From an uncultured Gammaproteobacteria bacterium (GTDB taxonomy: Bacteria > Patescibacteriota > Microgenomatia > Daviesbacterales > UBA10151): a DNA stretch of 13,875 bases. The notes under the pieces were generated by a model. That model was not told the DNA's origin, did no database searches, and worked only from the letters and a program-made list of their open reading frames with translations. Shown here in pieces: positions 1-13,766 of this stretch. Position numbers and translations under genes: made by a program. The number at the start of each line of letters is the position of its first letter. Position 1 is the stretch's first letter. The DNA lies in NCBI GenBank assembly GCA_964522265.1, contig CAZFVS010000017.1:1-13875 (forward strand). Reading direction: 5' to 3'.

Positions 1-852
1 TACAAAAAACAACGTCACAAAAAAATCACGCAGAGGTCTAATCTTGCATTGTAACTGCAGGAGATACGGCGACGACGCCAACCCTATCCCCGCGAGAAAC
101 GCTCCGATCACTACCGAAAAACCGCTTAGTGTTGCTATTGTGGTAAATAAGAAACACCAGGTTATCGCTGTTAAAAAAAGCAGTTCAGTATTTTTTGCAA
201 CAGCATCAAAAATCTTTTCCAACACATATTTTGAAAGTACAAATGTTAAAAAGAAAAGCAGCAATGCTTTGAAAACGAGGATCAAAAGCGGCAGTGATTG
301 TTGAAGACCCAGGTGTAAAAATGAGCTGCTGACCGATATCCCCATTAGAACCAATATCGCAACCAAGTCTTCCAAGAGGAGGATACCCAGTGAAAGCTTG
401 CCGTATAAAGAGGTAAGATCCCGCTTCTCAAGAAGCAATTTGATCACTACCAAGGTCGACGAAAAAGCCAAACCTATGCCTAAATAGAAACTTTCAATCT
501 GGTTGAAACCTAAATAGCCAGCTATGGCGTATCCTGCTAGCGTAGAGATAATGGTCTGGCCCAAAGATGTCATGATAATCGGTTTTCCAAGGCTTCTTAT
601 CTCCCGCAGATCTAGTTCCATACCTATCAAAAACAATACAAAAGCTATGCCAAGTTCCGGCAAAAAATTAAATATCCAAAGACTGTGAAAATCTATCGGG
701 CTGTTTTGGAACACCAACAGCGCTAAACCAGACAATGTAACACCTGAGACCAGATAAGCTATGACCAAAGGCAACCTCAGCCTGTACATAACAAAACCGA
801 AAAATGAAGCCAGTGATAGGACTAACGCAAATTGCAAAAAGATATTTTCCAT
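1..852 (-). CDS. Cation:proton antiporter, CPA2 (Kef/NapA-like) family; N-terminal 284 codons, 3' end beyond the left window edge
   Basis: Absent from the ORF track because it runs off the edge. My manual reverse-complement translation from ATG 852..850 gives 284 stop-free codons down to position 1. Sequence: MENIFLQFALVLSLASFFGFVMYRLRLPLVIAYLVSGVTLSG...PELGIAFVLFLIGMELDLREI...GLAFSSTLVVIKLLLEKRDL...LGILLLEDLVAI...GAFLAGIGLASSPY...PLRDFFVTLFFV. It is multi-TM, and these motifs are typical of Kef-type Na+/K+:H+ antiporters. The ATG shares one nt with the upstream stop (TAATG). Confidence 0.8.
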   Translation of the reverse strand, partial: MENIFLQFALVLSLASFFGFVMYRLRLPLVIAYLVSGVTLSGLALLVFQNSPIDFHSLWIFNFLPELGIAFVLFLIGMELDLREIRSLGKPIIMTSLGQTIISTLAGYAIAGYLGFNQIESFYLGIGLAFSSTLVVIKLLLEKRDLTSLYGKLSLGILLLEDLVAILVLMGISVSSSFLHLGLQQSLPLLILVFKALLLFFLTFVLSKYVLEKIFDAVAKNTELLFLTAITWCFLFTTIATLSGFSVVIGAFLAGIGLASSPYLLQLQCKIRPLRDFFVTLFFV

Positions 853-1637
853 TAAGAATTTATAATGTGTAACTTATCCAACGCTTCTTGTAAATCATGA
901 GGCAAATTACTTTTAAATTCAATCCATTTATCACTTACGGGATGCCTAAAACCTATTTTGCCGGCATGTAAAAATAGTCTCGGGCACCATCTTTTGTCTA
1001 ACCTGACAGTTTTTCTGCCGCCATACTTTTCATCCGAAACAACCGGATGCCCAATATACTTTAAATGTACCCTAATGTGATGCGTCCGTCCAGTTTTGGG
1101 ATAACACTTTAACAAAGTAAACTGGTTATAATGCATTTTATCCAGTTTCCTAGCTTGAATGTTGTTTAAATCATTAAAAATTGATTGAAAATTGAAAATT
1201 GAAAATTGAAAATTGCCCGCAGGTTTATATTCTGTCTCAGCTTCCTTACCTGTTGTTGAAACCTCAAATTTTTCCCTTTTTACAGGGTTTCTTTCTATGG
1301 CGCCTACAACCACTCCATTCCCCTCCACAAAACCATGAACAAGTGCTAAATATTCTTTTTTCACTATCCTATCTTTAAATTGGGACTGCAATTGTTCCAA
1401 AATATCTTGGGTTTTAGCAACCAGTAAAAGTCCTGAAGTATCCTTATCCAATCTATGTACTATCCCCATCCTCTCCAGTTTTGCCCCACTATGATACTCT
1501 AGAGTCTCATAGTGCTCCTTTAACCAACTTACCAAAGTCAAACCCTTATTTGTTGATGATTCATCAACTACCAGTCCAGGGGGCTTTTCAACCACCATCA
1601 GATATTCATCTTCAAAGATTATTGGGATTTTCACCAT
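852..1637 (-). CDS. RluA-family 23S/tRNA pseudouridine synthase (no N-terminal S4 domain)
   Basis: 261 aa ORF. Catalytic-Asp motif HRLDKDTSGLLLVAK, C-terminal motif KTGRTHHIRVHL, and N-terminus IIFEDEYLMVVEKPPGLVV. It carries a roughly 30-aa low-complexity insertion (AGNFQFSIFNFQSIFNDLNNIQARKLDKMHYNQ) between conserved blocks. Confidence 0.88.
   Translation of the reverse strand: MVKIPIIFEDEYLMVVEKPPGLVVDESSTNKGLTLVSWLKEHYETLEYHSGAKLERMGIVHRLDKDTSGLLLVAKTQDILEQLQSQFKDRIVKKEYLALVHGFVEGNGVVVGAIERNPVKREKFEVSTTGKEAETEYKPAGNFQFSIFNFQSIFNDLNNIQARKLDKMHYNQFTLLKCYPKTGRTHHIRVHLKYIGHPVVSDEKYGGRKTVRLDKRWCPRLFLHAGKIGFRHPVSDKWIEFKSNLPHDLQEALDKLHIINS
1185..1215. repeat. Heptanucleotide tandem repeat TTGAAAA x4 plus a partial copy (AATTTTC on the coding strand), inside the pseudouridine synthase CDS
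   Basis: Read directly: ttgaaaa at 1185-1191, 1192-1198, 1199-1205 and 1206-1212, then ttg at 1213-1215. It translates as NFQFSIFNFQS in the annotated frame. Confidence 0.95.
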
Positions 1638-1673
1638 GGGTTTATTGTACCTTCACAATATCACGAATGGAAA

Positions 1674-2075
1674 CTATTTTTTGGTAGCTTGCAGGTAGTT
1701 GTTGATTTCAGTTAAAACCTGGTCGGGGTTTAAGGCAGATTTAATCATGTAACCTGTACTCCCCAGCTCAAAGCACTGTTTTATTACAGCATCCTGACCT
1801 AAATTTGTTAAAACAACTATCGGACCGTTGGGATTTTTCGGGGGGTTGGTCTTATTATCCCTCAAAATCTGTAATCCGTCTTTTTTGGGCAGCATAATAT
1901 CCAGAATAATTAAAGCATACCCTCCTTCATATATTTTATTGGAAGCAGTTTCTCCATCGGCTGCTACATCTACCAAAAAACCGTCTGTCTGCAAAAGCTC
2001 CTGATAAAACTCTCTCAGGAACTGATCGTCTTCTACAATAAGGATTTTTTTATTAGGGTTTTGGTTGCTATCCAT
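1674..2075 (-). CDS. Single-domain (CheY-like) response regulator, receiver domain only
   Basis: 133 aa. Acidic pocket in ILIVEDDQ, phospho-acceptor Asp in LIILDIMLPKKDG, conserved Thr in VVLTNLG and Lys in GYMIKS. There is no DNA-binding or other output domain. Confidence 0.9.
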   Translation of the reverse strand: MDSNQNPNKKILIVEDDQFLREFYQELLQTDGFLVDVAADGETASNKIYEGGYALIILDIMLPKKDGLQILRDNKTNPPKNPNGPIVVLTNLGQDAVIKQCFELGSTGYMIKSALNPDQVLTEINNYLQATKK

Positions 2076-2081
2076 ATTTTA

Positions 2082-2110
2082 TTTATAACACAAGAGATTG
2101 ATTATTGCAA
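2082..2110 (-). promoter_or_regulatory. Candidate sigma70-type promoter for the response regulator gene (TTGCAA-17 nt-TATAAA, 6 nt before the ATG)
   Basis: Minus strand: TTGCAA 2110..2105, 17-nt spacer, TATAAA 2087..2082, then 6 nt to ATG 2075. No SD is visible. Chance matches are common in AT-rich DNA. Confidence 0.25.
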
Positions 2111-2127
2111 AACCGTGGAAGCTTTTT

Positions 2128-4347
2128 TCAAGGCATTACAGGCTCAAGCAGCTTAACTTCTCCTTTAACTTGCTTGGTATAAACCTCCGGATGAGCCAAT
2201 GTCTGGTTGGTGGCTGCAGGCAGGAGAAAAGTAAAAGTAGCTCCCTTACCTACACCCTCTGATTTGACCCAAATTCTTCCGCCCATCAGCTCAACCAGAC
2301 TTTTGCAGATGTAAAGACCCAAACCGGTTCCACCGGAAACAGCAGCTGCTGTATAGGAATTATCTAAACGGCCAAATTTCTTAAATAATGCCTGCTGTTC
2401 ATCAGCAGCAATACCCACACCGTTGTCTTTGATAGAAGTTTCAACTGTATTTCCATCAGAGAAGAAAGATACTGTAATCAACCCTCCTTCCGGGGTAAAT
2501 TTGACTGCATTTCCTACCAGGTTGAGCAACACTTGGTGGACTTTGTCGGGGTCGGAAAAAACTTTCGGGATTTTTGCATATTCAACCTTTAAGTTCAGAT
2601 TTTTCTCTTTAGCTTTGAGTCCGACCTCTAAGAAGACATCAGAAGAAAGAGCTGCAATATCGAAAATTCGAGGCACGATTTCTATCTTGCCAGATTCAAT
2701 CCGTGAGATGTTGAGCATATCATTCACCAGGTTTATGAGCCTCTCTGTTGAAAGAAACATTCGCTCTAAATACCTCTTCAGTTTATCAGAAAGAGGAATA
2801 TCAGACCTGTTTAAGGCCATCCATGCATAGGAGCGGATTACTGTCATCGGGGTTCTCAGCTCATGAGATGCAATTGATACAAAATCGTCTTTCAGCTGGT
2901 CCAGTTGTTGCAATTTGGCATTAACAACCCTCAAGTCTTGAGTAGCCTGAGTAATCTTACCCTGCAGTGTAATATTAAACTTTCTGATCTCCTCATAGTT
3001 TGTGGCATTTTGTATCGCCACGGCAACCTCAGGGGCAATAATCTCAAGCACTTTGATATCCTCAGGAGTATAGGGATCACCTGAAAGCTTCTCCCCTAAA
3101 ACTAAAAGGCCGATATTATTGCTTTCGCTGTATAGGGATTTTGCAACCGTCAGATCCAAAGACCTCAGGATCTCTTTATAATTTTCATTTTCGGGCAATT
3201 CTTCCAAAATAATTGTTTGTTTGGCCGCAGCCAAAGAAGCTATCTTATCTTCATCCAACTCAGGCAGTTTAGAAAACCCTTCGGAGGCAACCTGATAAAT
3301 ATACCCCTTTTCCGTTAAAATCAGCGCTACCCGGGAAATTTTCATCTGTTTGAGCAATTTTTGCAAGATCTGATGCATCAGATCTTCAAGCCTTAAGGTC
3401 GAAGACATGATCAATGCCAATTCATAGAGAAGTTTATTGGTATCATAATGATTTTTATAAAGGAACCGATCAGTGAGTTTTTCAAGGATTTTGCGGATGG
3501 GCTGGAAAGAGAAAGTCATGGAAAGTGCCAGCACCGCTGAAACTACAATAGTTTTGATAGCGACTATTGTGATACCCAGAAAGAGTGTTGACAACAGAGC
3601 AAATAAAACAGCGTAGGCAATCCCGAAGAATGCTATAAGCAGTATAAAAGATACTGTACGTGCTAAAACCAGACGTATATCAAGCAGCCTGTGCTTTAAG
3701 ATTGAATAAGCTATGGCAACCGCTGCGATCAGTAAAAAAGTCGGACTGACGGCGATAAACAGAGTAATACCGAATACAAGCGGTAAAATCAGGGTTGATA
3801 AAAGCGTCAGGCCGAAACTCGTTACTATACCAAAGGCTATGTATCTTAACTGCAGTTTCAAAAAACCAGTGGCTTTTCTGTATTTTTGGAACAAAACCCA
3901 TGATCCGGAAGAAATTGTTAAAATCTGCAGCATGGCGAAAAGCGGAACTGCAATTCCTGTTTGAATGTCCGGTTGACCATTCACAATTATCACATTGCTA
4001 AAAATAAACCCCAAAAATCCTAAAATTATATTTATCATCACCCAAACAGTGAGTAACAGGTGAATCGGCATACTTACAGTTGTTTTTACCTGGGGAAAAG
4101 TTTTGACAAATAGAAAAAATAACGGTCCAACCGGCACTGCAGAAAAAATAATAAATTTTGCCCAAAAAAGTGCATCCTGACTTGAGGTTGAATGAAGAGC
4201 CAAATAGTTAAAAATCGGGTAAAGACCGATGAAAAATATCAGTAGTGAAAAATAGATGTTAGTAGCACTTCTGGGATTTTTAGCAAAGACAAAAAGTACC
4301 AAAATAAAACAAGCTAGAGTGGTAACAAGAGAGACAGGCAGGTCCAT
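2128..4347 (-). CDS. Sensor histidine kinase: about 9 N-terminal TM helices (7TM-type sensor, no large periplasmic domain), GAF-like domain, HisKA, HATPase_c
   Basis: 739 aa. The first roughly 280 aa are almost entirely hydrophobic helices. A GAF-like region spans about aa 300-455 (LEDLMHQILQKLLKQMKISRVALIL...IGLLVLGEK...EDIKVLEIIAPEVAVAIQNA). H-box SIASHELRTPMT, N-box LLNLVGNAVKFTPEGG, G1 DNGVGI, G2 GGTGLGLYICKSLVELMGG. Confidence 0.92.
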   Translation of the reverse strand: MDLPVSLVTTLACFILVLFVFAKNPRSATNIYFSLLIFFIGLYPIFNYLALHSTSSQDALFWAKFIIFSAVPVGPLFFLFVKTFPQVKTTVSMPIHLLLTVWVMINIILGFLGFIFSNVIIVNGQPDIQTGIAVPLFAMLQILTISSGSWVLFQKYRKATGFLKLQLRYIAFGIVTSFGLTLLSTLILPLVFGITLFIAVSPTFLLIAAVAIAYSILKHRLLDIRLVLARTVSFILLIAFFGIAYAVLFALLSTLFLGITIVAIKTIVVSAVLALSMTFSFQPIRKILEKLTDRFLYKNHYDTNKLLYELALIMSSTLRLEDLMHQILQKLLKQMKISRVALILTEKGYIYQVASEGFSKLPELDEDKIASLAAAKQTIILEELPENENYKEILRSLDLTVAKSLYSESNNIGLLVLGEKLSGDPYTPEDIKVLEIIAPEVAVAIQNATNYEEIRKFNITLQGKITQATQDLRVVNAKLQQLDQLKDDFVSIASHELRTPMTVIRSYAWMALNRSDIPLSDKLKRYLERMFLSTERLINLVNDMLNISRIESGKIEIVPRIFDIAALSSDVFLEVGLKAKEKNLNLKVEYAKIPKVFSDPDKVHQVLLNLVGNAVKFTPEGGLITVSFFSDGNTVETSIKDNGVGIAADEQQALFKKFGRLDNSYTAAAVSGGTGLGLYICKSLVELMGGRIWVKSEGVGKGATFTFLLPAATNQTLAHPEVYTKQVKGEVKLLEPVMP

Positions 4348-4351
4348 AATA

Positions 4352-5377
4352 CTATACTAGCGCTTTTTCCAGATTCCTTCTAGGGGTATGATACGGAACA
4401 TTTGAGGAAAATCCGAGGCGGAAAAACATTTGAGGTATCCGGGGGACATTAAAAATTTCACCAAGCGCTTTCTTGGAAAATTTATCCTCTGTCATCGCTG
4501 CCATTACAGTGGTAGAAAGCCCTAAAACTGTCGCCTGCAAAGCAAGCTTTTCATAAGTCATGCCTGAGTATATCCAATCCCGCATATGATCATCAGGGCT
4601 TGCAATAATCCCAACGGCACTGCTGCTTTGGATCAACCGGCGATCTTTTTTGGCAAGCAGTTTCATAATTTGGGGAAAACGCCCAATCACATGCTTACCG
4701 ATCATTGCCGGGATACCTGTCTGCCCTACTACAAAAGCAGGCATACCATCATCCGCTTTCGTGTTATTGGTCCTCATCCAGTGCGAAAGCTCCACTGTAA
4801 AATCCTTTTTTTGGGCATATTCCGCGACAGCCTCTTGATGGATTTGAGAAACTCTATTGATAATTTCATCATCAGTGGTCAAAACTACTTTTGTATTGTC
4901 TGCAGAGATCTCACGCAAACATCTAAGTTGATCCGGATCAATTAATTTCTTTGAATAAACCAGTTTATTGGAATATCTTTGGGAAAGGGCTGGAAAAAGT
5001 TCTGCAAGACTCCGGTTACTGGTGCCGGTTTTTTTAAAAACCAATTGAATGCTTGATTCTTGTTTTGTGACTATTTCTATTTTTGGGAAGACAGTATATC
5101 CAAACTTTGCTGCGGCAATAATAGTATTTTGAGCCAGACATCCGAGAGAGAAAAAAAGGTTGGAGTCATCAGGATCAGCTTGCGGAAGTCTCCTGCTCCA
5201 ATCAGGTAATATGAGCGCAGTATTATTTGCGATTTTAATTTTCCAAGGTTGAGTATTATGAGTAGACGGAGCTAAAATCCCGAATCTCAAAAAAAATTTA
5301 ATCTCCTCTGCTATATCTCCGTTTTTAGGAAAATCCCTCTCTGAGATTTCCCAAGCACTGTAATTGTTTTCAACCAT
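4352..5377 (-). CDS. Nitroreductase-fold protein, double-domain Acg-like type (probable FMN-binding oxidoreductase)
   Basis: 341 aa, about twice the length of a classical nitroreductase. The N-terminal motif APSTHNTQPWKIKI resembles the (S/T)HN(S/T)QPW motif of Acg/Rv2032-type and Rv1355c C-terminal domains. AAGGA SD at 5389..5385, 7 nt before the ATG. The start overlaps the upstream gene by 8 nt. Confidence 0.65.
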   Translation of the reverse strand: MVENNYSAWEISERDFPKNGDIAEEIKFFLRFGILAPSTHNTQPWKIKIANNTALILPDWSRRLPQADPDDSNLFFSLGCLAQNTIIAAAKFGYTVFPKIEIVTKQESSIQLVFKKTGTSNRSLAELFPALSQRYSNKLVYSKKLIDPDQLRCLREISADNTKVVLTTDDEIINRVSQIHQEAVAEYAQKKDFTVELSHWMRTNNTKADDGMPAFVVGQTGIPAMIGKHVIGRFPQIMKLLAKKDRRLIQSSSAVGIIASPDDHMRDWIYSGMTYEKLALQATVLGLSTTVMAAMTEDKFSKKALGEIFNVPRIPQMFFRLGFSSNVPYHTPRRNLEKALV

Positions 5378-6500
5378 TGAGTAATCCTTTCGTTATTTTT
5401 ATAACCTCTTTTCTCTTTTCGTCATTATAGTCTAAATTAAAGAGTTTATCAAAAGAGATAAAATGTCTGCCTGAAGGAAGATCCTCACCCAATAACAATT
5501 TCCTCACCAAATATGCGGCGATTCCGCTTGAGGCAGTGACTGTATTACCAAGCTGAGGCCTGCCAACCAAAGTCTTATTAATTTTCAAAAGCGACTGCAG
5601 CGCCCTGGTAGGAATATTTTCCATACCAACTATTTCAATGGCATATTTTATTTTCTCCTTCTCCCCAATGGGCTTTGATAAAATCTCCTCAGGGATTCCG
5701 CCCAAAAGTCCATTAAAAAGCTCAATATTTTTATCAATATCATATCTTTCAATATCAACTAAAAACCCATCTCCTAAGTTAGTCACCATTAAAACTGGGA
5801 TGCCTCTTTTTTTGGCCTCCATCCTGAGCCTTATTTTCATCTCAAAATCATCAATCTCATCAAATAAAATTTCGGGGTTTTGTCGAGATAAAAAATTTTG
5901 CAGATTATTTTTGTTTAAACCTTTATCAAAAACAATTAAATTAGCATAAGGGTTTGCTTCATAAATTTGACGGGATACCAAAGATGATTTACTTTCCCCA
6001 ATTTGGTGCACCCCGGCCCGAACTCTGTTTAAATTGCTGGTAGATAAATTATCAAAATCTGTCAGTTTCAGTTGCCCAATCCCGCTGTATGCTAAACTTA
6101 CTGCAATACTGCCTCCAACCGACAATCCACAAACAGCCACACAGCTTTTTAAAAGTTTCTTTTGTTCATCCTCAGTGATTAAATCCTGGTTTCTGTTGGT
6201 ACGGAGCTTTTGAAAATCTTTCTCAGAAACCATATGGATCAAACAGCCATTCCAGGGAAAATAAACCCAATTTCCTTTTAAGTCTCCGTCATATTTTTCT
6301 AAAAACTTAGCAAATTTGGTTTTATAATCAGGTGAAAATTTCAGGGCTGGGAATTTTATCTCAAACAACTCCACAAGCTGACTCTTATAAATATCAACAA
6401 CTTTCCAAATCTTTTTCCCTGTCTTAAACTTTTCAAGATTTTCCCTGGTATAACCCTCTATTAAAATCTCCGGTTTTGGAATACTCATTTCTGCACCCAT
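5370..6500 (-). CDS. E1-like ThiF/MoeB-superfamily adenylyltransferase with a roughly 115-aa N-terminal extension; no catalytic Cys and no CxxC zinc motifs
   Basis: 376 aa. Rossmann/ATP motif VAVCGLSVGGSIAVSLAYSGIGQLKLTDFDNLSTSNLNRV, later Lys in GESKS and acidic motif FDEIDDFEMK (equivalent to the MoeB DxxDN region). The only two Cys residues lie in SCVAVCGLS. GGAGG at 6514..6510 sits 9 nt upstream of ATG 6500. An alternative ATG at 6488 would form an ATGA overlap with the upstream stop. Confidence 0.8.
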   Translation of the reverse strand: MGAEMSIPKPEILIEGYTRENLEKFKTGKKIWKVVDIYKSQLVELFEIKFPALKFSPDYKTKFAKFLEKYDGDLKGNWVYFPWNGCLIHMVSEKDFQKLRTNRNQDLITEDEQKKLLKSCVAVCGLSVGGSIAVSLAYSGIGQLKLTDFDNLSTSNLNRVRAGVHQIGESKSSLVSRQIYEANPYANLIVFDKGLNKNNLQNFLSRQNPEILFDEIDDFEMKIRLRMEAKKRGIPVLMVTNLGDGFLVDIERYDIDKNIELFNGLLGGIPEEILSKPIGEKEKIKYAIEIVGMENIPTRALQSLLKINKTLVGRPQLGNTVTASSGIAAYLVRKLLLGEDLPSGRHFISFDKLFNLDYNDEKRKEVIKITKGLLNG

Positions 6501-7975
6501 TGTTGTTTACCTCCGGGCCTAAAATATTTTGGGTTTTCATAGTCCCAAAAAATTACTTTAGGGATAACTTTCTTTGGGTACTCCTCGTATGTCTTTCTGT
6601 ATTCTGAATTTTCCTCTAAAAGTTTTTTTTGAATAGTATTCCTAACCTGTTTTTTTAACTCTTTACCTTCTTTAATTTTTTCTTTGAGTTCAACATTTAT
6701 TTCAAAAATTTGCCCTCCTTTTTTATTATATTTAATTAGCATGGTAAATTTGCCTGTAATTTGATCTTTCAAGCTTCCTGCCTGCAAGGCTTTCCTGACA
6801 GTCTCGGGATAAATCTGGAAGGCAAAAAAACTGACTGAAAAATCACTCCGTTCGTAAACATAGACAAAAGGCGCTTTAAAAACTGTATCTGAAATACCAG
6901 CTTTATCTACCTGATCATCAATATCAACACCGCTCCTGAGCAGTTTTTCCATCATCTCACTGTATCCTATTACCCCGCCATGGTCTTTTAAATCATAGCG
7001 TATTAGCGGATAACCGCTTTCTGCAGAACAGATTAAATTTCCATCAATACTTTCAAAATAAAAAAGTTCCGGGATGTACTGGCAAAGGGTTGGAAGCCTA
7101 TCAATATTGCCAAATATCTCTTTAAATAAGTTGGGGTTTTTAACAGCCAATCTTCTGATTAAAACAGACAGCGGTGTTTCATGGGCCATTGTCCCAAGGT
7201 CAACTGTTCCATAAATATTTAAAGTATCTTTATAGGGGTTTTTTAAACCGGCTTTTTCTATAACATAATCCCTGAACTGCTCACTAAAACCTTCTGCCGC
7301 AAAAACAAACTTTAAATTATAATCCTGCCAATTCACACCAAATTTTGGGCCATCATCCAATGCATCTTTTAAAAACGGACCGTAAGAACCAATTATTACC
7401 TGGTCAAATTCATGGCCTAAATTTTTTAAGGCTTTACTTATTTCTGCTTTACTGATACCCGGAGTAATAATACTCAATTTATACTTCCCTAAATTTTGGA
7501 TCATTTTAAGCGCCTGATAGGTAAAAAGGCCGCCAATCCATACCCCCATGGGAAATCCCACTATAAACAGCGTACTCTTTTCATCAATCCCGAAGTTCGT
7601 TGTTAGCATTAACTCCAAAGCTAGAGCATACTGCAGATCCTGTGAATTGTCCCTTGGAAAGTAAAACGGCTCACCGGTTGACCCCGAAGTTGTTGATATA
7701 ACCCAATTTTTGCCTGCAAATTCCCCATCCCAGCACAAAGATCTCCTTGGATAAACCCTCAGATAGTTAGCTTTACCAATTGTAGGTATTGACTTAAAAT
7801 CATTAATTGTTTTTATGGCAATAGGGTCGATTTTGTTTTTTTTCAGAAAGTCCTTGTAGGCAGGAACATTCCTGGACATTTTTTTGAAAAGATCAAGCAC
7901 GACACGATCGCCTCTTTTGGTCCAATATTCTTCAGGTTTGCTTTTGAGCTGATTTAATGAATCTACAGTGCTCAT
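6485..7975 (-). CDS. PaaK / coenzyme F390 synthetase-like adenylate-forming enzyme (phenylacetate-CoA ligase family)
   Basis: 496 aa. Phosphate-binding loop TTSGSTGEPFYFP, second core motif NIYGTVDLGTMAHE, and the hinge-like motif LIRYDLKDHG resembling RYRTGD of PaaK. It is longer than canonical PaaK. ATGA start/stop overlap with the upstream dehydrogenase. Confidence 0.75.
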   Translation of the reverse strand: MSTVDSLNQLKSKPEEYWTKRGDRVVLDLFKKMSRNVPAYKDFLKKNKIDPIAIKTINDFKSIPTIGKANYLRVYPRRSLCWDGEFAGKNWVISTTSGSTGEPFYFPRDNSQDLQYALALELMLTTNFGIDEKSTLFIVGFPMGVWIGGLFTYQALKMIQNLGKYKLSIITPGISKAEISKALKNLGHEFDQVIIGSYGPFLKDALDDGPKFGVNWQDYNLKFVFAAEGFSEQFRDYVIEKAGLKNPYKDTLNIYGTVDLGTMAHETPLSVLIRRLAVKNPNLFKEIFGNIDRLPTLCQYIPELFYFESIDGNLICSAESGYPLIRYDLKDHGGVIGYSEMMEKLLRSGVDIDDQVDKAGISDTVFKAPFVYVYERSDFSVSFFAFQIYPETVRKALQAGSLKDQITGKFTMLIKYNKKGGQIFEINVELKEKIKEGKELKKQVRNTIQKKLLEENSEYRKTYEEYPKKVIPKVIFWDYENPKYFRPGGKQQWVQK

Positions 7976-9030
7976 TCAAATTTTTTCAACAGTTTTTCAG
8001 CTATTTCATCCGCAATAGTATTGGTAGCACGCTTGGATTTTTTACTTTTTTCGATTATTGAGCTTAATGTTTTCTGAATTTTTATAACCTTTGCCCTCAG
8101 TCTTTCCTCATCATATTCCTTATGTTCATATTCATCAACAACACAAATCAGCCCGCCGGCATTAATTACATAATCGGGTGCATAAAGTATCCCGCGTTTA
8201 TGCAAAACTTCACCAACCTCCTTATCCTCAAGCTGACTGTTGGCAGAACCGGCGATAATCCTGCAGCTCAATGAAGATATGTTCTTGAAATTTATGGCAT
8301 TGCCTAATGCGCAGGGTGAAAAAACATCAACTTTTTGTTTATGAATTTCAGCAGGCTTGACAATTTCAACTTTCGGAAATTTTTGTTTAATACATAATAC
8401 TCTGGCGGAGCTGATATCGGAAACGTAAATTTTGCCTGCATTAAAGTATATCAGCTTCAAAAGCTCTATGCCTGTTTTACCAAGCCCCTGGATGGCAAAG
8501 GTTTTGCCTTGAAGACTTTTTTTACCGAAAACTGCTTTAAGACATATTTTAATGGAATAGTAAACCCCGAGCGCAGTATATTTTACGGGATCGTATCTTA
8601 AACCAACTATATGAGGGCTCACCGATGACATCAACCTAACGTCCGCCTCCTCTACTCCCAGATCTGCCCCGGTTACAAAGCGGCCGGATAACAGATTTAC
8701 AAACTCTGCATATTTTTTAAAAAAAGCTTTTCTCGATATTGAGTTTGCATGCTGGGTACTCATAAGAACCGCTTTTGAACCGCCGTAATTTAATCCAGCC
8801 AGAGCCGATTTATAGGACATTGTTTTGGATAACCTCAGGGCATCCTTCAGTGCATCAAATTCCGTTTTATATCTCCAAAGACGCGTTGCCCCAAAGGTAG
8901 GATTTTTAAAACCGCCTTTATGTATAGCTATCACACCTTTCAGACCGGTTTCCCTATCATAAATAAACTGTATCAGCTTATGGTCATCAAAATCCGGATG
9001 TGATTCAAAATTGAAATTTCTGTTCTGCAT
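7972..9030 (-). CDS. Glu/Leu/Phe/Val dehydrogenase superfamily, Leu/Phe/Val-dehydrogenase type (NAD-dependent amino-acid dehydrogenase)
   Basis: 352 aa. By my recall it aligns along its length with Bacillus leucine dehydrogenase: GLKGVIAIH, GATRLW, ALRLSKTMSYKSALAGLNYGGSKAV (catalytic Lys), dinucleotide fold FAIQGLGKTG, FSPCALGNAIN, IIAGSANSQL, ILYAPDYVINAGGL. Confidence 0.88.
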   Translation of the reverse strand: MQNRNFNFESHPDFDDHKLIQFIYDRETGLKGVIAIHKGGFKNPTFGATRLWRYKTEFDALKDALRLSKTMSYKSALAGLNYGGSKAVLMSTQHANSISRKAFFKKYAEFVNLLSGRFVTGADLGVEEADVRLMSSVSPHIVGLRYDPVKYTALGVYYSIKICLKAVFGKKSLQGKTFAIQGLGKTGIELLKLIYFNAGKIYVSDISSARVLCIKQKFPKVEIVKPAEIHKQKVDVFSPCALGNAINFKNISSLSCRIIAGSANSQLEDKEVGEVLHKRGILYAPDYVINAGGLICVVDEYEHKEYDEERLRAKVIKIQKTLSSIIEKSKKSKRATNTIADEIAEKLLKKFE

Positions 9031-9048
9031 AATTTAAGCAATTATGAT

Positions 9049-9077
9049 AGTTTACTAACCTATGGGGTATAAGTCAA
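9049..9077 (-). promoter_or_regulatory. Candidate sigma70-type promoter ahead of the enzyme cassette (TTGACT-17 nt-TAAACT)
   Basis: Minus strand: TTGACT 9077..9072, 17-nt spacer, TAAACT 9054..9049, then 18 nt to ATG 9030 with no SD. It lies in the only sizeable (70 nt) gap upstream of the cassette. No terminator hairpin is seen after the DksA-like stop, so read-through from upstream is also possible. Confidence 0.3.
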
Positions 9078-9100
9078 GTTCGGGCTGGGTATTTTTGTGC

Positions 9101-9454
9101 TCATTCTGTTTTTTTGGAGCTTTTTTGGGAGCAGGAGATACAAAGATGGGCATCAGGCATCACACCCAATCTTTCCGCTTCAATCATTTTGTTGCACTTT
9201 TCACATCTTCCATATTTGCCGCTTTTAAGTTTTTCAAGCGCCTTTTTGGTCCTTTCAAGTATCTGTTGTAAACTTATCTTCACTGCAACCGCCCTCGAAT
9301 GTACATCTGCCAACCAGGAATCTGTTCCTGGTTCCGAACTTTCGATAGGTCCACCACTCATGACCGGATCATCTTTTTCTAAAGTCTTAAGATCCTCTTC
9401 AACCTTCTTCTGCTTTCTAACAAGTAATTTTTTGATTTTATCCAGTGTATTCAT
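9101..9454 (-). CDS. DksA/TraR-family C4-type zinc-finger protein
   Basis: 117 aa. Coiled-coil-like N-terminal part and the C-terminal motif CEKCNKMIEAERLGVMPDAHLCISC (CxxC-17-CxxC). TAATG one-nt overlap with the lgt-like stop. Confidence 0.8.
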   Translation of the reverse strand: MNTLDKIKKLLVRKQKKVEEDLKTLEKDDPVMSGGPIESSEPGTDSWLADVHSRAVAVKISLQQILERTKKALEKLKSGKYGRCEKCNKMIEAERLGVMPDAHLCISCSQKSSKKTE

Positions 9455-10365
9455 TAAAATTGAGGTGGATTTGATTTAATGTTTAAAAACTTTAAGAGTT
9501 TTTTACATCTTCGGCCAAACCCAATACTTAAATCTACTCTAAAATTATACCAGTTTTTATAAATCTTGGAAACAACCTCTTGTCTTTTACCGGCACTTTT
9601 GAAAAAAGTCTTGAGCCACCTAAGATCTGCTGCGAAAGAGTGTTTATTTGCAACATAGAAGATCCTCAAGCTATAAATAATCACCAAGGTGGAACTCAAA
9701 ATACCTACCGGAACCGGTCCAATCCATTGCCTATTTCCATAAAAAAATTCCAATAAAAACTTAAAAATTCCGAGCATCAATAATCCCTCTGCTGCTATTG
9801 CACCATTGGGATGAAACCTTAAAACCCCTTTCCAAAGATATAAGAACCCTAAGAAAAAAAGTAAAGACTCAACTGCTTGGACAGGAAATCTTTTATCAAT
9901 CAATCCAACCTGGGTTACAGCAAAAGGCAGGTTCAATGCAAAACCATATTCACAACTGCCCAAAAGACAACCTATACTGGCAAAGGAAATCCCTAAAAAT
10001 ACTCCCGGGATAACAAGATCTACGACCTGCCAAAAGTCAAGTTTAAACCGCAGGCATAACCACTTCAGAATTACAAATGACCCAAAGAACCCTCCCCAAA
10101 ATGAAAGTCCTGGATAACGGTTGAATAAAACAGCTTTCAAGGGTTCACGAAATTGGTCCAGGTGGAAAATAACAAAAAGCAGCCTCGATAATATGAAACC
10201 TCCAGCCAGCGTCAGAAGAATCAGGTCCAGAAACCTCTCCTCATCAAGATCATAAACCTTAATAATTCTCCAGATAAAATATGTAGCAGAGAGACAGGCA
10301 AGGATTAAAAAAAACCCAAATGATGAGATAGGCAGAGAACCGATGGTAAACAGTACTGGCTGCAT
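9454..10365 (-). CDS. lgt: Prolipoprotein diacylglyceryl transferase-like integral membrane protein
   Basis: The N-terminus MQPVLFTIGSLPISSFGFFLILACLSATYFIWR matches the typical Lgt start. It is multi-TM, and SIGCLLGSCEYG resembles the Lgt GR(I/L)GCFLNGCCYG block. I place the start at ATG 10365 rather than the TTG at 10371 used by the ORF track. Confidence 0.65.
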   Translation of the reverse strand: MQPVLFTIGSLPISSFGFFLILACLSATYFIWRIIKVYDLDEERFLDLILLTLAGGFILSRLLFVIFHLDQFREPLKAVLFNRYPGLSFWGGFFGSFVILKWLCLRFKLDFWQVVDLVIPGVFLGISFASIGCLLGSCEYGFALNLPFAVTQVGLIDKRFPVQAVESLLFFLGFLYLWKGVLRFHPNGAIAAEGLLMLGIFKFLLEFFYGNRQWIGPVPVGILSSTLVIIYSLRIFYVANKHSFAADLRWLKTFFKSAGKRQEVVSKIYKNWYNFRVDLSIGFGRRCKKLLKFLNIKSNPPQF

Positions 10366-10372
10366 CCACAAT

Positions 10373-10402
10373 ATCTTACCAAAATTGCCAGAGTTTGACC
10401 AA
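10373..10402 (-). promoter_or_regulatory. Candidate promoter for lgt-like gene (TTGGTC-18 nt-TAAGAT, 7 nt before the ATG)
   Basis: Minus strand: TTGGTC 10402..10397, 18-nt spacer, TAAGAT 10378..10373, 7 nt, ATG 10365. No SD. Confidence 0.3.
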
Positions 10403-10414
10403 TACTGGTATACT
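10385..10414 (+). promoter_or_regulatory. Candidate divergent promoter for the small membrane protein (TTGCCA-18 nt-TATACT)
   Basis: Plus strand: TTGCCA 10385-10390, 18-nt spacer, TATACT 10409-10414, 13 nt to ATG 10428. The TTG start at 10395 in the ORF track would lie inside this promoter. Confidence 0.3.
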
Positions 10415-10427
10415 AACCTTAGAAGTC

Positions 10428-10871
10428 ATGACTGCAACTGCACATGCGTTAGTAGGCGGCGCAATTGCTGCCGGCGTAAAAGACCCTGTGCTGGGTATCA
10501 CTCTGTCTTTTGCAACCCATCCATTTTTAGACATAATCCCCCATTGGGATTTTGGCTGGGGGTGGAAGAAAAAGACTAAAATAACGCTTTTCTTTCAGGC
10601 GAGTTTTGATCTGGTGTTAGGTTTTGCTTTGGCTTATCTTTTTTTTGGTCAAAATATTAATTTCTGGTATTTTTCAGCCTGCGTTTTTGCTTCTGAAGTT
10701 TGGGACATCATGGAAGCACCTTACTGGTTTTTAAACTGGCGCTTCCCGCCCTTCTCCTGGATTTACAATGTACAGTCAAGGATGCAGGGCAAACTTAAAC
10801 TTCCCTGGGGAATATTAACCCAAGTTGCATCAGTTATCATCATAATCATTCTTCTGCAAAACTTTCAGTAA
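10428..10871 (+). CDS. Hypothetical small integral membrane protein (family not recognised; vague resemblance to YdjM/DUF457-type membrane hydrolases)
   Basis: 147 aa from ATG 10428. Sequence: MTATAHALVGGAIAAG...THPFLDIIPHWDF... followed by several hydrophobic segments. It is Trp/Phe-rich. No confident homology from memory. Confidence 0.5.
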   Translation: MTATAHALVGGAIAAGVKDPVLGITLSFATHPFLDIIPHWDFGWGWKKKTKITLFFQASFDLVLGFALAYLFFGQNINFWYFSACVFASEVWDIMEAPYWFLNWRFPPFSWIYNVQSRMQGKLKLPWGILTQVASVIIIIILLQNFQ

Positions 10872-10876
10872 TTTTT

Positions 10877-11764
10877 TTAATTTCTCAAATCCTTTAAATA
10901 TGCCGCAAAATCTTTACCAATTTCCGGATGGTCCAAACCATATTCAACCACAGCTTTTAAATAATCCAACTTATTACCCGTATCCCTGTATTTGGCATTC
11001 TGAATTTCAATAGCATACACAGGCAGATTTTTATCAATCATACCCTGGAGACCATGGGTATAGACCAGCTCCTGATCAGGACCAAGCCCTGATTTTGCCT
11101 CCTCAAGCGATGCGTAAATCCCCGGTGTTACCACTATCCCGGAAACTACCGCCAAGTCTGAAGGAGAATTTTCCTTGCTTCCGGGTTTTTCTATGATCCT
11201 GTTTAATTTGAAAACGCCATTCTCCATTTGATCTCCCCCAACAAAACCGTATTTTTTATAATCATCCTCGCCATGTACACGGAGAGCCCCCAGGATTGCA
11301 GCATCATATTTTTCGTAAGCTGAAAGCAGCTGTTTAGCCCTGGAGGGGGCTGCATCAACAAAATCATCTCCCCAAAAAACCATAAATGGGTCATCACCCA
11401 TGATATGCTGCGCGTTTAAAATCGGAGTAGCGTTACCGAGGGGCCCTTTTTGCCTGAGATATACAAATTCAGCCAGAGATGAAATTTTCCGCACAATCTC
11501 TAACTCTTTTTCTTTGCCGGCTCGGGCCAGTTTTTCTTCAAGTTCAAAGTTGTTGTCAAAATGATCCTCTATGCTTCTCTTATTCCAACCCGTGACAATC
11601 ACAATTACCTCAATCCCAACCTCAACCAGCTCTTCAACCACCCTTTGGATAATGGGTTTATCCACCAGAGGCATCATCTCCTTAGGCATGGCTTTGGTCT
11701 GAGGTAAAAATCTTGTACCAAACCCGGCTGCAGGAATTAAGGCTTTGGTAATTTTTTTAGCCAT
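10877..11764 (-). CDS. galU: UTP--glucose-1-phosphate uridylyltransferase
   Basis: The N-terminal signature KALIPAAGFGTRFLPQTKAMPKEMMPLVDKPIIQ is diagnostic of GalU, and VIVTG...KRSIEDHFD, YLRQKGPLGNA and EKP also fit. I place the start at ATG 11764 rather than the track's TTG at 11770. Confidence 0.92.
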   Translation of the reverse strand: MAKKITKALIPAAGFGTRFLPQTKAMPKEMMPLVDKPIIQRVVEELVEVGIEVIVIVTGWNKRSIEDHFDNNFELEEKLARAGKEKELEIVRKISSLAEFVYLRQKGPLGNATPILNAQHIMGDDPFMVFWGDDFVDAAPSRAKQLLSAYEKYDAAILGALRVHGEDDYKKYGFVGGDQMENGVFKLNRIIEKPGSKENSPSDLAVVSGIVVTPGIYASLEEAKSGLGPDQELVYTHGLQGMIDKNLPVYAIEIQNAKYRDTGNKLDYLKAVVEYGLDHPEIGKDFAAYLKDLRN

Positions 11765-11771
11765 ACCCAAA

Positions 11772-11777
11772 ATTATA
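11772..11777 (-). promoter_or_regulatory. Consensus -10 box TATAAT, 7 nt upstream of the galU ATG
   Basis: Minus strand: TATAAT 11777..11772, then TTTGGGT, then ATG 11764. There is no SD, and the -35 is weak. Confidence 0.35.
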
Positions 11778-11831
11778 CTATCAGTTTTTTGGAAATTATG
11801 CTAGTGTTAAATAAGGGTATTTTAGATCTGA

Positions 11832-12623
11832 ATGGAATTGGGGAACAAAAATTACTATATCGCGGATACGCATGTCCACAGTAAATTCAGTGATGGTCTT
11901 CACTCTCCTTGGGAAATCCTCAAACAGGCTAAAAAAGCAGGTCTTAATGTTGTGGCTTTAACTGATCATGACACCACAGCAGGTATTACGCCACAACTTT
12001 CAGAAAAAGCCCAAAAGCTGAATATAGGACTGATTAGAGCTTGTGAAATTACCACAGCCCAAGGACATCTGATTGCACTTGATAAAAATAATACCTTTCC
12101 CAACAGACCTTTTGAGGAATTCTATTCTTTGGCAGATACAGTGGAGGTTGTGAGCGATTACGGAGGTATTATTCTCATCCCTCATTTGGGTTTTTGTATA
12201 TCACCAGGCTCAGTCGCGCCTGCAACATTGAATGACCTTTATCAAACAGGCAGACATGTTTCAGCAATTGAAACAGCCCATCCCAGTTTCAATACCAGGC
12301 ATACAATCCAGGCACTGCAAACCGCCAGACAATATAACATTGCAGAAATCGGGGTTAGTGATGACCACTGGGGAAATGTCGGCAGAAAGTTCGTAACCCA
12401 CTACCCAAAAATGTCTGGAGATCCGGTTAAGGATTTTTTTGCCGCTTTGGACAAAAATACCACTAGACCGGAAGTCTCAAAATATCACCCAATAAACATT
12501 CCTTTTAGCTGGAAACTCTACCAAAATACAGCAGCAAATTTTAGAGGCTTGGACAGGAAAATACCGAGGATAGGCAGGTTAATCTTGACACATTTTCGGT
12601 TAAATATATCACGTATTATTTAA
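11832..12623 (+). CDS. PHP-domain metal-dependent phosphoesterase (TrpH/YciV-like)
   Basis: 263 aa. N-terminal PHP motif ADTHVHSKFSDGLHSPWEILKQAKKAGLNVVALTDHDTTAG, plus further His/Asp ligands in IPHLG and VSDDHW. Confidence 0.8.
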   Translation: MELGNKNYYIADTHVHSKFSDGLHSPWEILKQAKKAGLNVVALTDHDTTAGITPQLSEKAQKLNIGLIRACEITTAQGHLIALDKNNTFPNRPFEEFYSLADTVEVVSDYGGIILIPHLGFCISPGSVAPATLNDLYQTGRHVSAIETAHPSFNTRHTIQALQTARQYNIAEIGVSDDHWGNVGRKFVTHYPKMSGDPVKDFFAALDKNTTRPEVSKYHPINIPFSWKLYQNTAANFRGLDRKIPRIGRLILTHFRLNISRII

Positions 12624-13173
12624 CCCTCTCCACATACTCTCCGCTCCTGGTATCAATCTTAACCTTTTCCCCAGCATCCATAAACATCGGGACTTTCACA
12701 ACTAACCCATTATCTAAGGTTGCCTCTTTATATACATTTGCGACGGTGTTCCCCTTTTCGGAAGGGCCTGTTTCGGAGATTGTATATATCAGGCTGTTCG
12801 GCAGCTCTATCCCCAAAGCCTCCTCTCCCGAGACTATTAAAATCACCTCTAAACCCTCTTTTAGGTATTTCGCCTGTTCGGCTAAAACATTTTTCGGGAG
12901 GGCAAATTGTTCAAAAGATTCAGGGTCCATAAAATTAAAATTATCATCTTTGTAGAGAAATTGGGCTTTTTTCTTTTCAACACCTGCCTCATCAACCCTG
13001 GCTCCGGTAATGAAGGATTTTTCAGTCACGGAGCCTGTCCTTAAATTTCTGACTTTGACTTTGATCGTACCAGACCCACGACCCATCTTAGTATGCTCAT
13101 AAGAGATCACCTGCAATATCTGCCCGGAATCCTTAAAACAGGCGCCATTTTTAAGTTCTGTTACGTTTAACAT
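12616..13173 (-). CDS. efp: Translation elongation factor P
   Basis: 185 aa with full-length EF-P architecture: LKNGACF...GQILQVISYEHTKMGRGSGTIKVKVRNLRTG...FMD...F...VKVPMF...GEKVKIDTRSGEYVERV. Its 3' end overlaps the convergent PHP gene by 8 nt. Confidence 0.93.
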   Translation of the reverse strand: MLNVTELKNGACFKDSGQILQVISYEHTKMGRGSGTIKVKVRNLRTGSVTEKSFITGARVDEAGVEKKKAQFLYKDDNFNFMDPESFEQFALPKNVLAEQAKYLKEGLEVILIVSGEEALGIELPNSLIYTISETGPSEKGNTVANVYKEATLDNGLVVKVPMFMDAGEKVKIDTRSGEYVERVK

Positions 13174-13180
13174 GAAGATT

Positions 13181-13209
13181 AGTTTAGTTCAGGCACAAGA
13201 TAAATGCAA
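13181..13209 (-). promoter_or_regulatory. Candidate efp promoter (TTGCAT-17 nt-TAAACT, 7 nt before the ATG)
   Basis: Minus strand: TTGCAT 13209..13204, 17-nt spacer, TAAACT 13186..13181, AATCTTC, ATG 13173. No SD. Confidence 0.35.
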
Positions 13210-13259
13210 CTTTTACCCAACATTATCTGATTCAATTACTCTTACCCAATTTTTTATCC

Positions 13260-13706
13260 CTACTTGACTGATGAAATCCCGCATCGGTTTGGTGCAATTT
13301 TTTTGCTGGCCCATACACTTTTTTGCCAATGCATAAAACCCCATTGTTTGAGCTTTGACCTTAGCAGATCTCTTGCCTGTCTCCTTTTTTCCGGAATATC
13401 AAAAATTATTATTCTCCACTTTCCATCCCATTCTGTCTGTTCGTTACGGATACTGGCCCAAATTGCCTGGTCTCTACCGCTATCAGTTAATTTAAATGCC
13501 AATTTTCCATCACTTACAAAATCAATCAAACCATTTTCCCGCAATCTTTTTAAAGCTTTTGAGAGCGCTGACTTCTTAATAGGTCTGGGGTATCCATAAA
13601 GATGTTTATAATAATTGATTGCAAAATCTTCAAAGCTAACATAACCATCAACCGCTTTCTCTAACCCCAGTAGAATAAAATCTCCTAATTTTTTATTTGT
13701 ATTCAT
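13260..13706 (-). CDS. PaaX-like transcriptional regulator (N-terminal winged-helix, C-terminal Cas2/VapD-like fold domain)
   Basis: 148 aa from ATG 13706. The N-terminal part (LSKALKRLRENGLIDF) looks like a wHTH. The C-terminal WDGKWRIIIFDIPEKRRQARDLLRSKLKQWGFMHWQKSVW matches the conserved PaaX core (WDGxW..v.F.iPe..R..RD.lr..L...GF). The 17 extra N-terminal codons in the ORF track start at a TTG and simply read through the upstream tandem repeat. Confidence 0.7.
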   Translation of the reverse strand: MNTNKKLGDFILLGLEKAVDGYVSFEDFAINYYKHLYGYPRPIKKSALSKALKRLRENGLIDFVSDGKLAFKLTDSGRDQAIWASIRNEQTEWDGKWRIIIFDIPEKRRQARDLLRSKLKQWGFMHWQKSVWASKKIAPNRCGISSVK

Positions 13707-13715
13707 GATTTTCAG

Positions 13716-13745: not shown

Positions 13746-13766
13746 TACGATAAGCAAAGTAACTTT

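Follow-up and report, generated by a model that had tools for sequence, protein, structure and literature searches.

The genomes of Patescibacteria measure about 1 Mb and encode almost no biosynthesis and few regulators, and a compact set of enzyme genes in one of them raises the question of what these enzymes make. The window analyzed here is a whole 13,875-nt stretch of such a genome (contig CAZFVS010000017.1, positions 1 to 13,875), and its minus strand carries four overlapping genes encoding an amino-acid dehydrogenase (7972..9030, 352 aa), a ligase of the PaaK fold (6485..7975, 496 aa), a ThiF/E1-like enzyme, hereafter E1 (5370..6500, 376 aa), and an Acg-type flavoprotein (4352..5377, 341 aa). 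These genes and their junctions were confirmed from the sequence, as were the catalytic motifs that an earlier note on this DNA had described as intact: GGSK and GLGKTG in the dehydrogenase, TTSGSTGEP in the ligase, GLSVGGS...DFD...SNLNR in the E1 and THNTQPW in the flavoprotein. That note had taken the four genes as the complete unit. The unit is larger, with genes for a sensor histidine kinase (2128..4347, minus strand, 739 aa) and a receiver-only, CheY-like response regulator (1674..2075, minus strand, 133 aa) following downstream. In our estimate there is an even chance that the cassette lies at the enzymatic heart of a module found across Patescibacteria, which uses oxazolone-synthetase chemistry to form a heterocycle from an amino acid and is transcribed together with a two-component system of its own.

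When GTDB species representatives were scanned with the E1 as seed, 50 loci were obtained, which together with look-ups and the window made up 52 non-redundant loci; a second set, seeded with the ligase, comprised 80 metagenome loci, many of them on incomplete contigs. The ligase gene was adjacent to the E1 seed in 51 of the 52 loci, and the E1 gene was adjacent to the ligase seed in 78 of the 80. The flavoprotein was found in 51/52 and 56/80 loci, the dehydrogenase in 30/52 and 43/80, and a class I/II aminotransferase (PF00155) in 13/52 and 24/80; the last two never occurred together in either set, and one or the other was present in 43 of the E1-seeded loci. The neighborhood search from the E1, which the earlier note had proposed, showed that the cassette recurs across genomes but that its gene order is permuted, with more than 30 distinct orders. 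Natural fusions joined dehydrogenase, ligase and E1 in a single protein of 1242-1252 aa (L012/P0310), dehydrogenase to ligase (P0260), ligase to E1 (P0243), E1 to ligase in the opposite order (P0311), and E1 to flavoprotein (L016, L065, L066, L070 and L083); the flavoprotein and the E1 were each also found fused to an alpha/beta hydrolase. It is this conserved synteny and these fusions, not the overlaps, that place the cassette beyond chance, and mere chance adjacency is contradicted by the synteny across loci. The gene overlaps are by themselves unremarkable for a compact genome. The genes almost certainly form one pathway, and the view that the four constitute one functional unit, in which two ATP-dependent activations of a carboxylate and two redox steps act on an amino acid or 2-oxo acid, was borne out by the synteny in about 130 loci, the fusions and the replacement of the dehydrogenase.

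Profile searches returned the anticipated families outright for three of the four proteins (ELFV dehydrogenase, ThiF and nitroreductase/Acg), while the ligase had no Pfam match and weak NCBIfam matches and was assigned with the backing of a PaaK-fold model. The E1 matched PF00899 (ThiF) in the Pfam search. Its best NCBIfam model was NF005901, the Rv1355c family, with 293 bits over profile positions 23-345 of 722, the next family scoring 92 bits. It was 34% identical over 337 residues (E 5e-55) to an Rv1355c-family protein from a Mycolicibacterium plasmid, which scores 1015 bits on NF005901 and is thus a bona fide family member. The two proteins share an N-terminal extension (about 100 aa in the window E1), an LRxxRNxxxIT signature and the nucleotide-site Asp. 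Residues D150, N156-R159, D217 and R226 are invariant in the E1 family. Where the window protein has D217 (within DEIDDF), the Mycolicibacterium homologue has the Asp of EECDS, from which we infer that the window residue is equivalent to D217 of the Mycobacterium smegmatis TrzS; the D217A change in that enzyme abolishes cyclase activity (PMC12856293). The earlier description of the E1 as free of cysteine was incorrect, as C86, C120 and C124 are present, though no Cys occurs among the invariant or 90%-conserved columns of the family. An AlphaFold2 model of the E1 had a predicted local distance difference test (pLDDT) score of 88.4, and its nearest structure was AclA (9egb), followed by ThiF, MccB, UBA5, PaaA and MoeB. 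AclA, from Tenacibaculum discolor (PDB 9egb-9egd, deposited 'in complex with substrate' in 2025), matched with a Foldseek E value of 3e-14 and a sequence E value of 1e-7. The best PDB match by sequence was TcdA, which is a cyclodehydratase. We propose that the E1, as a homologue of the cyclase half of TrzS (Rv1355c), is likewise a cyclodehydratase and yields a 5(4H)-oxazolone.

The flavoprotein matched PF00881 and exceeded the cut-off of NF047509, the Acg family, with 214.5 bits against 199 (residues 30-339, profile positions 3-318). It also matched the C-terminal half of NF005901 with 72 bits and aligned over its full length with Acg 2ymv (residues 31-337); its conserved residues are APS-HN-QPW, R134, E196 and P332-R333. 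The bona fide TrzS-family protein matches the Acg-family model as well, and hence the Acg match of the flavoprotein does not discriminate. When E1 and flavoprotein were fused in relatives from the candidate phyla radiation (CPR), the fusions matched the NF005901 (TrzS) model end to end with 351-396 bits, below its equivalog cut-off. The flavoprotein is Acg-type, of the flavin-dependent oxidase (FDO) subgroup of the nitroreductase superfamily, and is proposed to be the C-alpha/C-beta desaturase of an oxazolone.

Three systems, TrzS, TyzB/C and OxzB, have been shown experimentally to cyclize and desaturate N-acyl aromatic amino acids (PMC12856293, PMC10404671, bioRxiv 10.1101/2020.06.11.147165). 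OxzB, found by de Rond et al., is an oxazolone synthetase with a ThiF and a nitroreductase domain (bioRxiv 10.1101/2020.06.11.147165). In the N-acyl tyrazolone pathway, Rv2336-Rv2338c, the ThiF homologue TyzB is the cyclase and the FDO TyzC is the desaturase (Grigg et al., PMC10404671), while TrzS (Rv1355c) cyclizes and then desaturates N-acyl-Trp (Kleetz et al., PMC12856293). The sequence resemblance suggests that the E1 and the flavoprotein probably work together like an oxazolone synthetase, as a distant relative of TrzS and not as its equivalog.

TrzAS, the N-acyl tryptazolone pathway (Rv1356c/Rv1355c; Mycobacterium, Rhodococcus and relatives), shares with the window the joint presence of a ThiF-like, ATP-dependent cyclase and an Acg-type FDO. 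The two are fused in the order ThiF-FDO in TrzS, an order also seen in some CPR relatives, whereas they are separate genes in the window. Unlike TrzAS, the module is without a TrzA-type N-acyltransferase, adds a PaaK-fold ligase, an amino-acid dehydrogenase and a two-component system, and is hosted by Patescibacteria instead of Actinomycetota. TyzACB, compared by its description, resembles the window in having a split ThiF protein (TyzB) and a single-domain FDO of ~340-370 aa (TyzC) in one operon and in using an aromatic amino acid, as predicted for the module; it differs in having the N-acyltransferase TyzA, the ligase, dehydrogenase and kinase being found only in the module. In OxzAB of Pseudoalteromonas rubra, an ATP-dependent pair of ThiF and nitroreductase domains acts on a small molecule and not on a polypeptide, as we propose for the module, but the proteobacterial enzyme is fused, is accompanied by the N-acyltransferase OxzA and has no ligase, dehydrogenase or kinase partners. 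An acyl-CoA-dependent N-acyltransferase, namely OxzA, TyzA or TrzA, supplies the substrate in all three systems (bioRxiv 10.1101/2020.06.11.147165, PMC10404671, PMC12856293).

How, then, would a substrate be supplied in the window? No acyltransferase domain was found in the window, and the only extra families to recur in the related loci were the hydrolase and the aminotransferase, in searches that were not aimed directly at homologues of TrzA, TyzA and OxzA; the gaps of a few nucleotides between the genes leave no space for an acyltransferase gene. The gene next to the plasmid Rv1355c homologue was considered as a TrzA-like acyltransferase and proved not to be one.

The ligase had no match in the Pfam search, and the PaaK, FlxY and F390 models of NCBIfam reached only 26-30 bits against equivalog cut-offs of 646-700 bits. 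Its AlphaFold model (pLDDT 86.9) gave Foldseek matches with E values of 1e-21 to 1e-14 to PaaK1/2, BT_0428, 2-hydroxyisobutyryl-coenzyme A (CoA) ligase and ClxA, with a value of 7e-22 for 2y27 and target-normalized template-modeling scores of 0.65-0.72 for the top matches; McbA was also among the structural matches. Identity to these PaaK-fold neighbors was 14-16%. All of 30 homologues retain the P-loop TTSGSTGEP, R326-Y327-D331 and, at the C terminus, G488-K490. With PaaK-family ligases the window ligase shares the two-domain fold, P-loop, R-Y-x-x-x-D motif and catalytic C-terminal Lys; it differs from them in being ~70 residues longer and in having no paa or benzoxazole gene context, its neighbors being the E1, the flavoprotein and the kinase. 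This divergent adenylate-forming ligase is more conserved than any other protein of the module, with 55-66% identity across CPR lineages, and its family forms 531 clusters at 50% identity (E<=1e-30). PaaK-fold and other ANL enzymes that condense their substrates without CoA exist, McbA and ClxA among them, the latter being a condensing enzyme that makes no use of CoA. Because there is no acyltransferase and the ligase is the most constant partner of the E1, to which it is fused in both orders, the ligase is our candidate for making the N-acyl amino acid directly. Formation of the amide directly from the acyl-adenylate would be the most economical reading, and we rate it at slightly less than an even chance.

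In an observation of its own, a Streptomyces plasmid (strain NBC_01426, L056, 6878-8652) carries a stand-alone 390-aa ThiF homologue, which has 33% identity with the window E1 across 88% of its length, is translationally coupled to a GNAT acetyltransferase and has no flavoprotein nearby. This pair may be another variant of acyl-amino-acid cyclization. Relatives of the Streptomyces GNAT were not found in the related loci.

The dehydrogenase matched PF02812 and PF00208 (ELFV_dehydrog_N and ELFV_dehydrog) in the Pfam search and contains NYGGSK and QGLGKTG. Its best PDB matches included a leucine dehydrogenase (LeuDH; 8hpe, 1.4e-69) and a tryptophan dehydrogenase (TrpDH; 5b37, 6.5e-65). The best NCBIfam match was the ScyB TrpDH model, with 280 bits, under a cut-off of 600, and the protein scored under every equivalog cut-off. 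At three pocket positions it has the residues of the Nostoc TrpDH (5b37) and not those of LeuDH: Gly for LeuDH-A113, Leu for LeuDH-V291, and FGATR, in which Gly-Ala and not Gly-Gly precedes Thr-Arg. The significance of these positions comes from work on LeuDH and phenylalanine dehydrogenase (PheDH). Among 28 module dehydrogenases, the pocket Gly was present in 28, the pocket Leu in 24 and the catalytic Lys in 28, and K86 and GLGKTG were invariant. Full-length homology, the catalytic Lys and the Rossmann motif are shared with ScyB/NpTrpDH 5b37, PheDH 1c1d and LeuDH 1leh, the pocket positions following TrpDH; the module enzyme differs from these in a one-residue insertion in the substrate loop (KGGFKNPTFGATR) and in its place within a ligase-E1 pathway, to members of which it is sometimes fused. 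The enzyme is a member of the Leu/Phe/Trp dehydrogenase branch, and its aromatic-type side-chain pocket suggests an aromatic or bulky substrate; such a substrate fits the Tyr, Phe and Trp used in the known oxazolone pathways. Over both sets of loci, the dehydrogenase occurred in 73 and the class-I aminotransferase in 37, with zero overlap. This exclusive alternation indicates that interconversion of an amino acid and a 2-oxo acid is a required step. Aminotransferase-bearing loci are mostly from Saccharimonadia, and shared descent may in part lie behind the pattern; the aminotransferase keeps its adjacency through internal rearrangements (L113, L117 and L132).

The kinase gene starts 4 nt past the flavoprotein stop, and the response regulator gene lies 52 nt downstream of the kinase. 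Pfam domains of the kinase are a HisKA_7TM membrane domain (PF16927), GAF (PF01590), HisKA (PF00512) and HATPase_c (PF02518); the regulator has a receiver domain (PF00072) and no output domain. A kinase of this seven-transmembrane (7TM) type lay beside the enzymes in 47/52 E1-seeded loci, with four of the five misses at contig ends, and in 56/80 ligase-seeded loci. In 21/52 and 33/80 loci, a similar receiver-only gene lay no more than 7 kb away. Genomes this small have few two-component systems. The 7TM kinase stays beside the enzymes in almost all loci, whatever the gene order, and this speaks for a functional link; that the kinase senses the pathway product is a tentative suggestion, which we consider somewhat doubtful. 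Signal synthase and sensor kinase operons, for example CqsA/CqsS, LuxM/LuxN and agr, likewise place the genes for making a small hydrophobic molecule beside that of a polytopic histidine kinase in the membrane. This is an analogy and not a homology: those systems have no sequence relationship to the module, and the module regulator is without a DNA-binding domain.

The following route would accommodate these proteins. The aromatic-type dehydrogenase, or the class-I aminotransferase in Saccharimonadia, would interconvert an amino acid and its 2-oxo acid. The ligase would then adenylate a carboxylic acid, which may be this 2-oxo acid or a compound derived from it, and couple it to the amino group of an amino acid, yielding an N-acyl amino acid and standing in for the acyl-CoA-dependent N-acyltransferases OxzA, TyzA and TrzA. 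In a third step, the ThiF-like enzyme would adenylate the free carboxylate, and the amide oxygen would close a 5(4H)-oxazolone ring, which the Acg-type flavoprotein would desaturate between C-alpha and C-beta in the fourth step to give a conjugated oxazolone. Finally, the 7TM kinase and the receiver-only regulator may sense the membrane-soluble product, in the manner of an autoinducer receptor, or control its production. The genes present, their conservation, their fusions and their homologies are established. The third and fourth steps would follow from the chemistry of the homologues, while the first, second and fifth steps, the direction of the first and the identity of the product are suggested by context only.

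A number of findings weigh against this route. The NF005901 equivalog cut-off of 476 bits is missed by the window E1 (293 bits) and flavoprotein (72 bits) and also by the CPR fusions. The flavoprotein and the FDO half of TrzS are only remote relatives (pairwise E 0.017), and the former scores better on the general Acg-family model, whose Mycobacterium tuberculosis members lack a known function. Known FDOs use O2, while many CPR bacteria inhabit anoxic settings. PaaK-type enzymes usually yield CoA thioesters, and direct amide formation by the window ligase is a proposal. Adjacency of the kinase does not show that it binds the product. Eight ligase-E1-kinase loci with enough flanking DNA had no detectable flavoprotein (L073, L088, L095, L109, L118, L127, L128 and L134). 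The genes of this sub-type encode an aminotransferase, the ligase, the E1 and the kinase; hence, desaturation is not universal, and the ligase and the E1 form the minimal core.

Other explanations of the module were considered. One that finds a role for every enzyme is an amino-acid-recycling cycle whose product is a primary amide or a conjugate of a dehydro-amino acid. The ligase would load an acid on a carrier amino acid, the E1 and flavoprotein would turn this into an unsaturated azlactone, and a hydrolase or water would open the ring; the resulting N-acyl-dehydroamino acid would fall apart into R-CONH2 and a 2-oxo acid, from which the dehydrogenase or aminotransferase would regenerate the amino acid. 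Such a cycle would account for the interchangeability of those two enzymes and for the enol-lactonase-like alpha/beta hydrolase, a frequent fusion partner of the flavoprotein or the E1, and oxazolones do open readily with water or alcohols (PMC12856293). This hydrolase (~290 aa) was found in 22/52 E1-seeded and 6/80 ligase-seeded loci (L004, L006, L008, L010, L012, L015, L017, L019, L020, L025-L028, L037, L044, L045, L070, L077, L089, L091, L100, L103 and others), either alone between the E1 and the kinase or at the C terminus of the flavoprotein or E1. Its best NCBIfam matches were the C-C hydrolases HsaD/BphD and the enol-lactonase PcaD, and it may open or transfer an azlactone. It is, however, absent from the window and from most loci, and the cycle is a purely chemical inference that has no precedent in the literature searched and leaves the conserved sensor kinase unexplained; we consider it improbable. 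A rather improbable explanation is a regulated flavoprotein module for stress or dormancy, in which flavin would be sequestered or redox protection provided, as in the DosR regulon, under the adjacent two-component system, the other enzymes belonging to general amino-acid metabolism. The flavoprotein passes the Acg-family cut-off, aligns with Acg 2ymv and always adjoins the sensor kinase. That family match is, however, shared by bona fide TrzS, and such a module would leave unexplained the near-obligate pairing of ligase and E1, the dehydrogenase-ligase-E1 and E1-flavoprotein fusions, and the ligase-E1-kinase loci without a flavoprotein.

There are two further alternatives. The E1 could activate the carboxylate of a polypeptide, with the flavoprotein oxidizing the heterocycle, as in ribosomally synthesized and post-translationally modified peptides, in particular thiazole/oxazole-modified microcins (TOMMs), or in ubiquitin-like systems. 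TOMM systems pair an E1-like protein with a flavin mononucleotide-dependent dehydrogenase, the model of the E1 is similar not only to ThiF but also to MccB, PaaA and UBA5, and the E1 has an N-terminal alpha/beta domain like that of peptide-binding E1-like enzymes; an N-terminal extension is, however, shared by the TrzS-type small-molecule enzymes (PMC12856293). The absence of YcaO, ubiquitin-like proteins, MoaD/ThiS and a precursor peptide, observed in the earlier note, holds for the window and the related loci, from which E2 and JAB proteins are also missing, and no Cys is conserved in the E1. No conserved small open reading frame (ORF) was present near the module in 132 loci, the recurrent small ORFs being shadows of large genes, and the hypothesis of a precursor peptide is thus not supported. 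Modification of a peptide or protein C terminus is thus very improbable. Least probable of all is catabolism of an aromatic amino acid for energy, through an arylpyruvate to an arylacetyl thioester from which the PaaK-like enzyme would work toward ATP, with the E1 and flavoprotein as unrelated neighbors. The structural neighbors of the ligase do include the phenylacetate-CoA ligases PaaK1/2 and the putative acyl-CoA ligase BT_0428, and a dehydrogenase or aminotransferase is the usual first step of such routes. Against this, the ligase is only 14-16% identical to the PaaK enzymes, the module has no recurrent 2-oxoacid oxidoreductase or decarboxylase and, as a strong contrary argument, the E1 is the most constant partner of the ligase (78/80) and is fused to it in both orders.

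Returning to the oxazolone-type route, what might its product do? The physiological role of oxazolones is unknown according to the authors of the Tyz and Trz studies, who speculate on signaling (PMC10404671, PMC12856293), and the Trz authors point to their resemblance to signaling molecules (PMC12856293). One extension of the route would make the module a self-contained signaling system of Patescibacteria, in which an azlactone or N-acyl-dehydroamino-acid signal made by the ligase, E1 and flavoprotein from scavenged aromatic amino acids would be sensed by the co-transcribed 7TM kinase and relayed by the CheY-like protein to an output other than transcription, such as pili or attachment. We consider this extension unlikely; if true, it would give CPR bacteria their first circuit of the autoinducer type and bacterial oxazolones a physiological role for the first time. 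Mycolic-acid Actinomycetota are among the only other known oxazolone producers, and some of them are hosts of Saccharibacteria; hence, the compound could act in cross-talk between epibiont and host.

In the literature searched, no description of the CPR version of the module was found, and the main text of PMC10633639, on Patescibacteria genetics, does not contain these genes. The earlier note had recognized no characterized pathway in the combination; this does not apply to the E1 and flavoprotein, which correspond to the oxazolone synthetase pair, and it stands for the ligase and dehydrogenase front end and for the kinase coupling. The chemical core is of a known kind, and what is new is the ligase front end, the dehydrogenase or aminotransferase step, the kinase coupling and the CPR-wide distribution. 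For natural-product enzymology, the module would offer an acyltransferase-free entry to oxazolone chemistry through a new branch of the PaaK fold. For oxazolone biology, a hard-wired sensor kinase would be the first genomic handle on the signaling idea, and for CPR biology, where host recognition is poorly understood, the module nominates a candidate small-molecule signal together with its receptor.

Six genes make up the module in the window, while relatives have five to seven. According to the locus records, the named lineages span Saccharimonadia and groups of the Microgenomates and Parcubacteria types, with loci from Saccharimonadia, Woese-, Woyke-, Gottesman-, Levy- and Roizmanbacteria, and Magasanik-, Lloyd-, Staskawicz- and Doudnabacteria. 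Homologues of the E1 number in the hundreds at 47-60% identity and are named from Woyke-, Levy- and Magasanikbacteria among others. Conservation of the module and its ligase across so many lineages implies an important function. The only locus from outside the Patescibacteria (L024) was in a single-cell genome of Margulisiibacteriota, where ligase, flavoprotein, dehydrogenase and E1 are reordered and no kinase lies within 10 kb; this locus could reflect transfer or contamination. Eight metagenome-assembled genomes titled 'uncultured Gammaproteobacteria' carry CPR-type modules (L007, L010, L022, L027, L028, L033, L045 and L054). The flanking genes of L027 and L028 are the same as those of Magasanikbacteria loci, and the Gammaproteobacteria labels are therefore probably wrong. 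In one complete Saccharibacteria genome (L048; CP064992.1, ~7200-14300), the module looks decayed, with the aminotransferase and the kinase each in two ORFs, the E1 cut to 295 aa and the flavoprotein shortened and inverted.

The junctions of the four enzyme genes in the window are an ATGA overlap between dehydrogenase and ligase (7972-7975), a 16-nt overlap between ligase and E1 (6485-6500; ATGGGTGCAGAAATGA), with GGAGG 9 nt upstream, and an 8-nt overlap between E1 and flavoprotein (5370-5377; ATGGTTGA), with AAGGA upstream. The start codon of the E1 is ambiguous between the ATG at 6500 and a second in-frame ATG at 6488, use of which would result in an ATGA overlap. The conserved C-terminal P-G-G-K-Q-x-W motif of the ligase, with its catalytic Lys, spans the Shine-Dalgarno-like GGAGG and the upstream ATG of the E1 (window 6485-6514), which makes these coupling signals dual-coded. 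Of 129 related loci, 65 have a start codon at -16, in large part because the conserved K/Q-W-V codons of the ligase C terminus contain it; GGAGG was retained in only ~10/129. A weak and tentative promoter-like site (TTGACT-17-TAAACT, 9049..9077, minus strand, matching 9/12 consensus positions) was placed in the 70-nt gap upstream of the dehydrogenase start, such sites not being strongly enriched relative to shuffled sequences. No terminator-like site was detected at the gene junctions from 9030 to 1674, and the few minus-strand consensus matches all fell within coding sequence. Rfam and tRNA scans of the window gave no matches. The GC content was slightly lower over the ligase and E1 genes (0.35-0.37 versus ~0.40). 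A horizontal-transfer island was considered and set aside, as this small dip is no evidence for recent transfer.

Several other genes of the window flank the module. A 165-aa protein with a PaaX central (Cas2-like) domain is encoded at 13260-13757 on the minus strand, 4 kb from the PaaK-fold ligase. PaaX is a phenylacetyl-CoA-responsive repressor, and the gene was considered as a regulator of the module; it recurred in only two of 131 other loci (L114 and L129) and is probably not a member. A DksA/TraR-type zinc-finger protein is encoded at 9101-9454 on the minus strand, with a 1-nt overlap with the end of lgt (9454-10371, minus strand). This gene lies 70 nt upstream of the dehydrogenase gene on the same strand, so that read-through into the cassette is possible. 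A hydrophobic 158-aa ORF without a Pfam family (10395-10871) is the sole plus-strand gene between lgt and a sugar-nucleotidyltransferase gene. At the other end of the window, positions 1-849 of the minus strand are an open frame for a membrane protein of the Na+/H+ exchanger family (PF00999), inside which the left end of the contig falls.

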